Positions 2,986 to 5,765 of a stretch of 7,172 nucleotides of DNA are shown piece by piece (position 1 is the stretch's first letter; the number at the start of each line of letters is the position of its first letter). A program made the position numbers and the translations under genes. The stretch lies in IMG/VR virus record IMGVR_UViG_2703718673_000012. One strand, written 5' to 3'. The notes below the pieces were generated by a model. The model had not been told where the DNA came from, searched no databases, and was given only the letters and a program-made list of their open reading frames with translations. The stretch is from a virus. Its lineage: Duplodnaviria > Heunggongvirae > Uroviricota > Caudoviricetes.

Positions 2986-3176
2986 CGTTCACAGTAAAAA
3001 CCATTCCTGACATGCTCGTTGAGGCATATGAAAATCAGACCGAGGTAGCCAGAATACTGAACTGTAGTCGCAACACGGTCAGAAAATACACTGGCGATAA
3101 AGAAGGGAAAAGACACGCTATCGTCAACGGTGTTCTTATGGTTCACCGCGGATGGGGTAAAGATACTGATGCGTGA
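2982..3176 (+). CDS. ninH: NinH family protein
   Basis: 64-aa product [38 protein letters not shown]...[12 protein letters not shown] matches my recollection of lambda NinH. ATG 2982 overlaps the ninG stop (ATGA). Confidence 0.85.
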
Positions 3177-3582
3177 TATCCGGCAGGTTCTTGAGCGCTG
3201 GGGGGCATGGGCGGCAAATAACTATGAGGATGTTACATGGTCGCCCATTGCTGCCGGATTTAAGGGACTGATCCCCGAAAAAGTAAAATCACGTCCACAG
3301 TGCTGTGACGATGATGCGATGGTGATATGCGGGTGCATAGCCCGCCTTTACCGGAACAATCGCGATCTGCATGACTTGCTGGTTGATTATTACGTGTTGG
3401 GGGAGACGTTCATGGCGTTGGCACGGAAACATGGGTGCTCTGACACNNNNNNNNNNNNNNNNNNNNNNNNNNNNNNNNNNNNNNNNNNNNNNNNNNNNNN
3501 NNNNNNCATGATAAGAGTGGTTACATTGCCACGCAGTCGAACCCGCCGATGCGCGGGTTTTTTTGTACCCCGAATCCTGTGA
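3169..3582 (+). CDS. Q: Late-gene antiterminator Q (933W-type allele inferred from context), interrupted by a 60-nt N run
   Basis: ATG 3169 overlaps the ninH 3' end. N-terminal 92 aa ([34 protein letters not shown]...[20 protein letters not shown]...) match my recollection of Stx2-phage Q. Position between ninH and the tR'/tRNA/stx2 module is as expected. The frame stays open across 3447-3506 (60 N, a multiple of 3) to TGA 3580-3582, but the C-terminus cannot be verified. GTG 3130 is an alternative in-frame start. Confidence 0.7.
3447..3506. other. Run of 60 ambiguous bases (N): assembly gap or masked segment inside Q
   Basis: Literal N characters at 3447-3506. Confidence 0.99.
3541..3564 (+). 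terminator. Terminator-like hairpin plus T7 tract within the 3' end of the apparent Q frame
   Basis: ACCCGC (3541-3546) pairs with GCGGGT (3553-3558) around loop CGATGC, followed by seven T's to 3564. Its relation to the Q C-terminus depends on the true size of the gap. Confidence 0.45.
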
Positions 3583-3599
3583 GCTATACGGAAAGTACA

Positions 3600-3700
3600 C
3601 AGAAAGGAAGGTGCGACCGTAATTAATAACAAAATCTTAAAAATCGCATATAGCACTATTAGTTTTCTAAATATTGTATATTTTAAGTATTGCAGGATAA
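3600..3700 (+). promoter_or_regulatory. Approximate late promoter pR' and Q-utilisation region (exact -35/-10 not resolved)
   Basis: AT-rich segment between Q and the tR' terminator. It holds several -10-like hexamers (TATATT 3677-3682, TAGTTT 3660-3665) but no clean -35/-10 pair. Placement rests on lambdoid gene order, not on a clear motif. Confidence 0.35.
3688..3698. repeat. Direct repeat copy 1 (TATTGCAGGAT)
   Basis: Exact 11-mer also present at 3896-3906; 13 of 14 bases match when extended (GTATTGCAGGATAA versus ATATTGCAGGATTA). Confidence 0.7.
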
Positions 3701-3744
3701 CCCTGTAACGAAGTTTGCGTAACAGCATTTTGCTCTACGAGTTT

Positions 3745-3773
3745 GCCAGCCTCCCCCAGTGGCTGGCTTTTTT
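3745..3773 (+). terminator. Rho-independent terminator consistent with tR' (end of the short pR' leader RNA)
   Basis: Stem GCCAGCC (3745-3751), loop TCCCCCAGT, stem GGCTGGC (3761-3767), then TTTTTT (3768-3773). Confidence 0.8.
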
Positions 3774-3781
3774 ATGTCCGT

Positions 3782-3895
3782 AGCGTCAAAGCAGCAATGG
3801 CGCTAGGGCGTCGTGCAATTGGCGTTGAGCTGGAGAGCGGGCGTTTTGAGCAGACGGTCAGGGAAGTTCAGAATGTAGTCAGTCAGAACGGATGA
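3782..3895 (+). pseudogene. Relic of the 3' end of a DNA amino-methyltransferase gene (C-terminal AdoMet-binding region only)
   Basis: Frame encodes ...RVSKAAMALGRRAIGVELESGRFEQTVREVQNVVSQNG then TGA 3893-3895. LGRRxIGxExE followed by an aromatic residue is the conserved C-terminal signature of beta-class N6/N4 DNA methyltransferases (usually preceded by GSGTT, which is absent here). No methyltransferase-like sequence in any frame upstream of 3780. Confidence 0.5.
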
Positions 3896-3906
3896 TATTG
3901 CAGGAT
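3896..3906. repeat. Direct repeat copy 2 (TATTGCAGGAT) with downstream inverted partner
   Basis: Exact copy of 3688-3698. GCAGGAT (3900-3906) is also the reverse complement of ATCCTGC (3925-3931), giving a 7-bp stem and 18-nt loop just upstream of the first tRNA. Confidence 0.7.
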
Positions 3907-3935
3907 TAGTTACGTACCGTTATTATCCTGCGCCC

Positions 3936-4011
3936 GGCCCTTTAGCTCAGTGGTGAGAGCGAGCGACTCATAATCGCCAGGTCGCTGGTTCAAATCCAGC
4001 AAGGGCCACCA
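3936..4011 (+). tRNA. ileZ: tRNA with CAU anticodon (tRNA-Ile2 lysidine type or Met; ileZ of Stx phages)
   Basis: Hand-folded cloverleaf: acceptor GGCCCTT/AAGGGCC, D-stem GCTC/GAGC, anticodon stem AGCGA/TCGCC with loop CTCATAA (anticodon CAT at 3969-3971), T-stem GCTGG/CCAGC with loop TTCAAAT, discriminator A, encoded CCA 4009-4011. Confidence 0.9.
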
Positions 4012-4020
4012 TATCACATA

Positions 4021-4097
4021 CCGCCATTAGCTCATCGGGACAGAGCGCCAGCCTTCGAAGCTGGCTGCGCGGGGTTCGAGTCCTCGATGGCGGTCCA
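4021..4097 (+). tRNA. argN: tRNA-Arg (anticodon UCG)
   Basis: Acceptor CCGCCAT/ATGGCGG, D-stem GCTC/GAGC, anticodon stem CCAGC/GCTGG with loop CTTCGAA (anticodon TCG at 4055-4057), T-stem CGGGG/CCTCG with loop TTCGAGT, encoded CCA 4095-4097. Name assigned by position in the known ileZ-argN-argO array. Confidence 0.85.
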
Positions 4098-4110
4098 TTA
4101 TCTGCATTAT

Positions 4111-4187
4111 GCGTTGTTAGCTCAGCCGGACAGAGCAATTGCCTTCTGAGCAATCGGTCACTGGTTCGAATCCAGTACAACGCGCCA
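4111..4187 (+). tRNA. argO: tRNA-Arg (anticodon UCU, reads rare AGA/AGG)
   Basis: Acceptor GCGTTGT/ACAACGC, D-stem GCTC/GAGC, anticodon stem ATTGC/GCAAT with loop CTTCTGA (anticodon TCT at 4145-4147), T-stem ACTGG/CCAGT with loop TTCGAAT, encoded CCA 4185-4187. Confidence 0.85.
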
Positions 4188-4199
4188 TATTTATTTACC

Positions 4200-4224
4200 A
4201 GGCTCGCTTTTGCGGGCCTTTTTT
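4200..4224 (+). terminator. Rho-independent terminator between the tRNA array and stx2A
   Basis: Stem AGGCTCGC (4200-4207) pairs with GCGGGCCT (4212-4219) with one G-U wobble, loop TTTT, then T-run 4219-4224. Confidence 0.7.
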
Positions 4225-4277
4225 ATATCTGCGCCGGGTCTGGTGCTGATTACTTCAGCCAAAAGGAACACCTGTAT

Positions 4278-5237
4278 ATGAAGTGTATATTATTTAAATG
4301 GGTACTGTGCCTGTTACTGGGTTTTTCTTCGGTATCCTATTCCCGGGAGTTTACGATAGACTTTTCGACCCAACAAAGTTATGTCTCTTCGTTAAATAGT
4401 ATACGGACAGAGATATCGACCCCTCTTGAACATATATCTCAGGGGACCACATCGGTGTCTGTTATTAACCACACCCCACCGGGCAGTTATTTTGCTGTGG
4501 ATATACGAGGGCTTGATGTCTATCAGGCGCGTTTTGACCATCTTCGTCTGATTATTGAGCAAAATAATTTATATGTGGCCGGGTTCGTTAATACGGCAAC
4601 AAATACTTTCTACCGTTTTTCAGATTTTACACATATATCAGTGCCCGGTGTGACAACGGTTTCCATGACAACGGACAGCAGTTATACCACTCTGCAACGT
4701 GTCGCAGCGCTGGAACGTTCCGGAATGCAAATCAGTCGTCACTCACTGGTTTCATCATATCTGGCGTTAATGGAGTTCAGTGGTAATACAATGACCAGAG
4801 ATGCATCCAGAGCAGTTCTGCGTTTTGTCACTGTCACAGCAGAAGCCTTACGCTTCAGGCAGATACAGAGAGAATTTCGTCAGGCACTGTCTGAAACTGC
4901 TCCTGTGTATACGATGACGCCGGGAGACGTGGACCTCACTCTGAACTGGGGGCGAATCAGCAATGTGCTTCCGGAGTATCGGGGAGAGGATGGTGTCAGA
5001 GTGGGGAGAATATCCTTTAATAATATATCAGCGATACTGGGGACTGTGGCCGTTATACTGAATTGCCATCATCAGGGGGCGCGTTCTGTTCGCGCCGTGA
5101 ATGAAGAGAGTCAACCAGAATGTCAGATAACTGGCGACAGGCCTGTTATAAAAATAAACAATACATTATGGGAAAGTAATACAGCTGCAGCGTTTCTGAA
5201 CAGAAAGTCACAGTTTTTATATACAACGGGTAAATAA
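4278..5237 (+). CDS. stx2A: Shiga toxin 2a A subunit (rRNA N-glycosidase), full-length precursor
   Basis: 319-aa product with a 22-aa signal peptide ([22 protein letters not shown]). Mature-numbering catalytic residues are present: Tyr77, Glu167 (codon 4842-4844) and Arg170 in [10 protein letters not shown]. Protease-sensitive disulfide loop [20 protein letters not shown] and C-terminus FLYTTGK as in Stx2a. RBS AAGGAA at 4263-4268. Confidence 0.97.
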
Positions 5238-5248
5238 AGGAGTTAAGC

Positions 5249-5518
5249 ATGAAGAAGATGTTTATGGCGGTTTTATTTGCATTAGCTTCTGTTAATGCAA
5301 TGGCGGCGGATTGTGCTAAAGGTAAAATTGAGTTTTCCAAGTATAATGAGGATGACACATTTACAGTGAAGGTTGACGGGAAAGAATACTGGACCAGTCG
5401 CTGGAATCTGCAACCGTTACTGCAAAGTGCTCAGTTGACAGGAATGACTGTCACAATCAAATCCAGTACCTGTGAATCAGGCTCCGGATTTGCTGAAGTG
5501 CAGTTTAATAATGACTGA
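5249..5518 (+). CDS. stx2B: Shiga toxin 2a B subunit (Gb3-binding pentamer subunit)
   Basis: 89-aa product with signal peptide [19 protein letters not shown] and mature sequence [70 protein letters not shown]. The residues in YNEDD and VKVDGKEY fit Stx2a rather than Stx2c as I recall them. Starts 11 nt after the stx2A stop with an AGGAG RBS. Confidence 0.97.
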
Positions 5519-5765
5519 GGCATAACCTGATTCGTGGTATGTGGGTAACAAGTGTAATCTGTGTCACAATTCAGTCAGTTGACAGTTGCCTGTCAGACTG
5601 AGCATTTGTTAAAAAAATTTCGCATGGTGAATCCCCCTGTGTGGAGGGGCGACTGGTGAAAAATCCTTGCTTGTGATTCATTATCGACACGGGTTCGGTG
5701 GTACCAGGCCGAACTCACCGGGAGGCACCCGGCACCATGCAGTATACAGAGATTAGGCATATACC

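Follow-up and report, generated by a model that had tools for sequence, protein, structure and literature searches.

An exact 11-base direct repeat upstream of stx2 in a 933W-type phage: probable coincidence of an StxS RNase E site and a tRNA-cassette promoter

Results

Two copies of an 11-mer between Q and stx2

The window, by which we mean the whole stretch of 7,172 nucleotides analysed here, derives from an Stx2a phage of the 933W/VT2-Sakai (Sp5) type and carries, in this order, ninG-ninH-Q, pR', tR', a methylase relic, ileZ-argN-argO, stx2A and stx2B. Positions 3510-4280 are 100% identical to Stx2 phage I, VT2-Sakai and other phages, with 0 differences from the Sakai chromosome. A run of N at 3448-3506 masks the 3' end of Q, whose stop codon lies at 3492-3494 in Sakai, together with the pR' hexamers; open reading frames listed across this run are artefactual, as in the case of an ORF at 3130-3582 that overruns the real Q stop. 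An exact 11-mer, TATTGCAGGAT, is present twice in this region, as originally predicted:

3688-3698, plus strand: copy 1 of TATTGCAGGAT, covering pR' transcript positions +173 to +183, with its first base at the RNase E cut from which the 5' end of StxS_S arises
3896-3906, plus strand: copy 2 of TATTGCAGGAT, directly after the methylase stop codon and containing the -35 hexamer of the tRNA promoter

The window holds 7 direct pairs of exact 11-mers, against 7.4 expected as the mean of 1000 dinucleotide-preserving shuffles of the window, and in 33% of the shuffles at least one such pair falls within 250 bp (P = 0.33). Neither an exact direct 12-mer pair nor, at one mismatch or fewer, a third copy of TATTGCAGGAT was found in the window. 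The original prediction had regarded an exact 11-mer recurring within about 200 bp as unlikely by chance. This premise of non-randomness is wrong: the repeat is real, but it is no more than chance gives. A second close pair of 11-mers is formed by TCAGTTGACAG at 5431-5441 and 5575-5585, 144 bp apart, one copy lying inside stx2B and the other just downstream; we take it as a chance match that illustrates how frequent such pairs are.

The segment bracketed by the two copies does hold the methylase relic (3782-3895) and, before it, the stem and T-run of tR' (3745-3773), in agreement with the earlier description. The open frame said to fill this segment is indeed open from the TAA at 3698-3700 and ended by the TGA at 3893-3895. 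As a frame, however, it is accidental, since the last 37 codons (from about 3782) are methylase-derived and the first 27 are StxS and tR' sequence that happens to read in frame.

Copy 1 begins at the RNase E site that releases StxS_S

The region around copy 1 encodes a regulatory RNA described in the Sakai strain:

3516-3773, plus strand: StxS_L, the 258-nt constitutive pR' transcript, which ends at tR' (PMC7547250)
3687-3691, plus strand: RNase E motif G-U/A-U-U (the slash marks the cut), the sole GTATT in the StxS_L transcript
3689-3773, plus strand: StxS_S, the processed regulatory sRNA, with the 5' end from dRNA-seq and an RLM-RACE end 8 nt downstream, at about 3697
3704-3712, plus strand: StxS seed core UGUAACGAA, located 3' of copy 1 and fully complementary to TTCGTTACA of the rpoS leader
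3745-3773, plus strand: tR' intrinsic terminator, GCCAGCC...GGCTGGC and T6; both AP004402 and phi24B carry it as an annotated terminator

In Sakai, pR' has a constitutive start, and the 3' end mapped by Term-seq lies 258 nt further on, at tR' (Sy, Lan & Tree 2020, PNAS; PMC7547250). RNase E cleaves GU/AUU at +173 and thereby releases the stable sRNA StxS_S, for which RLM-RACE gave a 5' end 8 nt further downstream; the RNase E dependence of this cleavage was established in Sakai, whose sequence is identical here, with RLM-RACE, rne-3071 and CRAC (PMC7547250). The -10 hexamer TATCAT at 3504-3509, read from the identical Sakai sequence, puts +1 at 3516, +173 at 3688 and +258 at 3773. Position 3688 is the U of the unique GTATT (+172 to +176), and 3773 is the last T of the tR' T-run. 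Since the start site, the GTATT and the end of the T-run all agree with the published numbers, copy 1 comprises the 11 nucleotides that start at the RNase E site and thus forms the 5' end of StxS_S. The paper's coordinates refer to NC_002695.1 and our comparison to NC_002695.2, the shift between them being derived from these three agreeing internal landmarks.

Further features of the locus conform to StxS. The GU/AUU site at +173 of the 258-nt transcript lies downstream of a 933W-type Q, and the seed complementary to the rpoS leader lies inside the processed 3' fragment. The leader sequence TTCGTTACA is present in 5,416 E. coli genomes, and its predicted duplex with the seed (-23.5 kcal/mol) ends at window position 3713. 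Copy 1 is kept in all 8 distinct pR'-tR' contexts, except that its first base is changed from T to C in phi24B (HM208303, locus position 1679, equal to window 3688), which turns the RNase E motif GU/AUU into GC/AUU. A role for copy 1 as part of pR' was rejected, given that pR' (-35 TTTACG at 3482-3487, -10 TATCAT at 3504-3509) sits 172 nt upstream, and the 'putative -35/-10' annotated in AP004402 at 3650-3675 differs from the mapped pR' promoter.

Several other features of this transcript were observed. Positions 3539-3566, as early as +24 to +51 from the pR' start, hold a strong hairpin with a T7 tail (GAACCCGCCGATGCGCGGGTTTTTTT) that resembles an intrinsic terminator. The phi24B record labels it a terminator, the Stx1 phage retains it, and LC567837 has a counterpart behind another Q gene; even so, StxS_L as published continues through it to +258. 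Rfam returned a sub-threshold RprA match over StxS_S (3661-3777; 28.1 bits against a gathering score of 70, E = 0.6), a match that fits the use by StxS of the rpoS seed region also used by RprA and DsrA. Rfam 15 itself apparently holds no StxS family. In addition, a -10-like TATATT preceded by TG occurs at 3677-3682, 7 nt upstream of A3689, the 5' end of StxS_S, and may explain why TSSPredator called a primary start there in the StxS paper. In Stx1-type modules, which still make StxS, this hexamer is degraded to TGTATT, which fits processing rather than an internal promoter.

Copy 2 overlaps the conserved promoter of the tRNA cassette

Downstream of the methylase stop codon the sequence is organized as follows:

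3898-3926, plus strand: tRNA-cassette promoter, with -35 TTGCAG at 3898-3903, a 17-nt spacer and -10 TATTAT at 3921-3926
3925-3931, plus strand: ATCCTGC, complementary to the GCAGGAT of both copies and overlapping the end of the -10 hexamer and the discriminator
3936-4187, plus strand: ileZ (CAU), argN (UCG) and argO (UCU) tRNA genes, from ARAGORN, Rfam and the Sakai annotation

The TATTAT hexamer ends 9 nt before ileZ, and the phi24B record HM208303 annotates the equivalent of window 3898-3926 as 'pT putative tRNA promoter'. In Sakai, dRNA-seq located a primary transcription start between tR' and stx2AB that drives the tRNAs (PMC7547250); we infer that this start is served by the TTGCAG/TATTAT pair. 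Upstream regions of ileZ-type tRNAs from 120 viral contigs and annotated phages yielded 37 distinct 60-nt sequences, and the promoter alignment comprised 31 distinct variants of a 50-nt window, 28 of them in the same register. All 31 variants share TTG in the -35 hexamer and TAT.AT in the -10 hexamer, and 28 of them also keep the 17-nt spacing. To the left, the variants have no relation to one another, with methylase stop codons, terminators of other Q modules or other sequences as flanks. The pair thus has the arrangement of a sigma-70 promoter, with hexamers separated by 16-18 nt and correctly placed upstream of the first tRNA, and both hexamers and spacing are conserved across divergent homologues behind unrelated upstream DNA. 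A consensus promoter scan missed this element, the -35 of which matches at just 3 of 6 positions.

The remainder of the 11-mer behaves differently. Positions 3896, 3897 and 3902-3904 vary among the promoter variants: T and G are found at 3896 in 14 and 13 variants, respectively, and the 28 same-register variants carry A (15), C (7), T (5) or G (1) at 3904. The G at 3904, just 3' of the -35 hexamer, is needed for identity with copy 1 and occurs only in the 933W/Sakai type and in one lineage with an intact methylase. Judged from these alignments, the conserved unit at this site is the promoter, not the 11-mer.

The first tRNA (3936-4011) is called Met (CAT) by ARAGORN, while GenBank/RefSeq annotate it as ileZ, a tRNA-Ile with a CAU anticodon that reads AUA after lysidine modification. 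The content of the cassette differs among prophages, with Met/Lys/Arg in PPompW_EH2246 and a single tRNA in vB_EcoS-640R1. A 454-nt query (3507-3960) found matches in 2,690 of 5,426 complete E. coli genomes, many of them non-STEC; most matches span the methylase/tRNA end of the query alone, and homology typically begins at the upstream edge of the promoter. Literature searches on ileZ/argN/argO and the phi24B tRNA promoter gave nothing useful.

The module junction lies between the two copies

Comparison with related phages and prophages places the boundaries of the segment as follows:

3782-3785, no strand: actual junction of the modules, with Q933W-pR'-tR' on one side and the truncated methylase on the other; similarity to Stx1 phages extends to 3782, that to intact-methylase phages begins at 3785
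3782-3895, plus strand: methylase relic, the last 37 codons and TGA, homologous to the intact methylase of LC567837

Aligned with residues 316-352 of the complete 352-aa methylase encoded by LC567837, the relic agrees at 29 of its 37 residues. In Stx1 phages, similarity through the Q-pR'-tR' module stops at 3782, beyond which the sequences differ. Matches to intact-methylase phages and to about 2,000 E. coli prophages start at 3785-3788, and those to prophages without the methylase at 3896-3898. The pR'-tR' segment is kept to at least 80% in one place in 290 of 291 phage records, and in the sampled rows the match runs through or ends at 3782. No breakpoint was found at copy 1 (3688-3698) in the sampled rows of 291 phage and 2,701 E. 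coli records.

The expectation that synteny would break at the repeat is therefore borne out at one end: the left edge of copy 2 (3896-3898) does start homology to many prophages, but copy 1 is nowhere a breakpoint. Nor are the copies devoid of breakpoints and transcript ends, an absence that had been set down as fatal to the idea, since an RNA 5' end lies at copy 1 and a homology boundary at copy 2. The proposal that the repeat marks the joining of the Q-pR' module to the tRNA-stx region nevertheless fails, as the real junction, at about 3783, lies between the copies. The 3896 boundary is an older gene/promoter boundary of the tRNA cassette. A flanking repeat generated by recombination should have both copies at the homology breakpoints of the segment, and this is not the arrangement seen here.

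The two copies occur independently of each other

Each copy is found without the other. The Stx1 phage AU6 carries copy 1 and lacks copy 2, and at least 10 loci that have another Q module and lack copy 1 carry an exact copy 2 after a complete 352-aa methylase. Because the intact methylase is ancestral to the relic, copy 2 predates the juxtaposition of the two modules. Thirteen loci have the relic architecture with copy 1 about 208 nt upstream; copy 2 reads GGAT in 7 of them and GAAT in 6, a polymorphism that indicates that identity of the 11-mers is not maintained. Both copies occur together in 6 of 132 sequences (131 fetched loci and the window), so that neither a shared origin nor constant co-occurrence is evident.

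Similarity between the two sites does not extend beyond the 11 bases, the local alignment score being that of the 11-mer alone. With nhmmer, a profile of the tRNA promoter matched 3893-3935 at E = 1e-12 and left the copy-1 region unmatched even at E<=100. The wider similarity or cross-detection by a profile that would be expected of duplicated, homologous regulatory elements is thus missing between these two sites. The idea of a duplicated promoter-proximal element holds to the extent that copy 2 overlaps a -35 hexamer, but copy 1 lies 172 nt downstream of pR' and escapes the profile. We also considered hidden homology, or a degenerate second tRNA promoter at copy 1, and rejected it: the TTGCAG at 3690-3695 has no -10 hexamer 17 nt downstream and the region no profile match. 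Gene conversion of copy 2 by copy 1 is unlikely, as G3904 is also found with the intact methylase and without copy 1. Elsewhere in the region, ATATAGCACTATTAGTT (3648-3664) and ATATTGCAGGATTAGTT (3894-3910) are identical at 14 of 17 positions, with a score no better than that of the 11-mer and at chance level.

A deletion between the copies would leave a single-copy junction, and a 60-nt query for this copy 1/copy 2 junction found none in 5,426 complete E. coli genomes and 50,697 phage records. With a longer junction query, all 25 of the 25 full-coverage matches listed are split into two pieces over 411 bp, as expected for the normal arrangement. Relatives therefore offer neither a single-copy empty site nor a deletion product.

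Discussion

Our analyses place the two copies of the 11-mer on two unrelated elements, each already described, in modules that are inherited separately, and we consider it very probable that their identity over 11 bases is coincidental. We propose the following history for the locus. Copy 1 would have come with the Q-pR'-tR' module, as the RNase E site that converts StxS_L into StxS_S just 5' of the rpoS seed, and copy 2 with the methylase-tRNA-stx2 module, as the -35 hexamer region of the presumed sigma-70 promoter of ileZ-argN-argO. Recombination at about 3783 would then have truncated the methylase, joined the modules and set the pre-existing copies 208 bp apart. The repeat would thus be neither the cause nor the product of this recombination and would have no function as a pair. 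Our own analysis supplies the coordinates, the statistics, the separate occurrence of the copies, the breakpoints and the negative results on extended homology and covariation; that RNase E cleaves StxS_L, what StxS does and that a tRNA start exists are taken from the literature. Three observations count against coincidence: functional landmarks lie under both copies, a mild surprise for a chance match; the A preceding copy 2 gives AU/AUU, followed by the same 10 bases as at the validated site; and, in the fold predicted for the window lineage, copy 2 pairs locally with 3925-3931 as a hairpin.

The second of these observations raises the question of whether copy 2 duplicates the RNase E signal. 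RNase E processes polycistronic tRNA precursors in E. coli. It is conceivable that pR' read-through RNA, antiterminated by Q, is cut at copy 2 (AU/AUUGCAGGAU, 3896/3897) as it is at copy 1. Such a cut, 39 nt ahead of ileZ, would free the tRNA-stx2 RNA from the StxS/relic leader. Copy 1 does start at a validated RNase E site, and A3895 together with copy 2 fits the degenerate motif RN/WUU with the next 10 bases shared. Yet this motif is so degenerate that it has 14 matches in the 258-nt StxS_L, for one reported cleavage; the bases composing the 11-mer vary at the copy-2 site of other tRNA cassettes (at 3896, 14 variants have T and 13 have G; G3904 in 1 of 28), and phages of identical architecture carry GAAT. 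Moreover, the tRNAs have their own promoter, with a start predicted at 3932-3934, downstream of copy 2. We regard a duplicated RNase E signal as improbable, and hold it a shade less probable again that a cut at 3896/3897 in the RU/AUUGCAGGAU context takes place during lytic induction and influences tRNA maturation or Stx2 mRNA stability. Were it to occur, the rare G3904 allele would represent a lineage-specific gain of an RNase E site, and a true second site at copy 2 would add a modest new point on the processing of the late Stx2 transcript.

A structural role appears more doubtful still. Copy 2 and ATCCTGC (3925-3931) could form a functional hairpin in processing or stability of the tRNA precursor or leader, with copy 1 perhaps competing for the 3' arm, but we consider this very improbable. 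ATCCTGC is indeed complementary to GCAGGAT at 3900-3906, as first noted, although the gap to the first tRNA at 3936 is 4 nt rather than the 5 given. The pairing is a perfect 7 bp, becomes 8 bp with an inner stem in the minimum-free-energy fold of 3880-4015 in the window lineage, and shows one apparent compensatory change between lineages, GGAT/ATCC to GAAT/ATTC. Across variants, however, covariation scores 0.103, no higher than the mean of shuffles (0.105), and 261 of 500 shuffles reach 0.103; of 31 variants, 9, 13 and 16, respectively, fail to form the three central pairs; and the outer pairs consist of the promoter's TTGC and TATTAT bases, conserved for other reasons. A conserved hairpin or tRNA-leader signal, with pairing maintained by covariation, is ruled out by these counts even though the structure folds in the window lineage. 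The hairpin also lies upstream of the predicted tRNA start and would therefore be absent from promoter-derived precursors, occurring only in read-through RNA. The 5' end of StxS_S can pair with 3918-3932 at a predicted -17.9 kcal/mol, but this duplex ranks about 20th of 1,384 windows and is not distinctive, and a special pairing of this kind was discarded. The suggested tRNA-precursor processing signal thus finds no counterpart here, the signal at copy 1 serving StxS and the hairpin at copy 2 not being conserved. A recombination scar, whether a target-site duplication, an att-like core or microhomology from the insertion of a segment or the joining of modules, seems to us the most improbable reading. 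Homology with other prophages does repeatedly break at the left edge of copy 2 (3896-3898), but this boundary is simply the methylase stop codon beside the promoter edge. On its left the joined segment begins at 3782-3785, which is 85 bp beyond copy 1; the sampled rows show no breakpoint at copy 1; each copy occurs alone in an older context, copy 1 in Stx1 phages and copy 2 behind the intact methylase; and neither the single-copy empty site nor an excision product was found in 5,426 E. coli genomes and 50,697 phage records. With breakpoints elsewhere, independent histories of the copies and no empty site, we rejected a target-site duplication or junction scar.

What is the relevance of the locus if, as we favor, the identity of the two copies is coincidental? 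As a pair the repeat would be unimportant, marking neither a junction nor a shared signal. The gain is one of annotation, in that the StxS RNase E site, its seed, tR', the junction at about 3783, the 37-codon relic and the tRNA promoter are now placed on exact coordinates in a much-studied virulence locus. In addition, the tRNA cassette travels with its own conserved promoter, the upstream edge of which is a recurrent mosaic boundary in about half of complete E. coli genomes.

The two copies can be set beside known systems. Copy 1 has the same sequence as the StxS maturation site, the window being identical to Sakai Sp5 in this region, with GU/AUU at +173 and 5' of the seed (PMC7547250). The paper describing StxS makes no mention of a second occurrence of the 11 bases, and copy 2 differs from the maturation site in lying outside StxS and having no reported cleavage. 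Copy 2 overlaps the ileZ-argN-argO promoter ('pT' in HM208303; the tRNA start in Sakai), whose hexamers and spacer are kept behind varied flanks; unlike the promoter, only the TTGC of the 11-mer is conserved, and the full 11-mer is a lineage-specific allele defined by G3904. The 37-codon relic and the sharp boundaries at 3782/3785 and 3896-3898 resemble lambdoid mosaic junctions, in which recombination at gene boundaries leaves truncated relics, although here the junction lies away from the repeat copies and involves no microhomology between them. A short exact direct repeat around a segment of about 200 bp also recalls target-site duplications and att-core repeats, from which this one differs in that its copies lie off the homology boundaries, have independent histories and are accompanied by no empty site.
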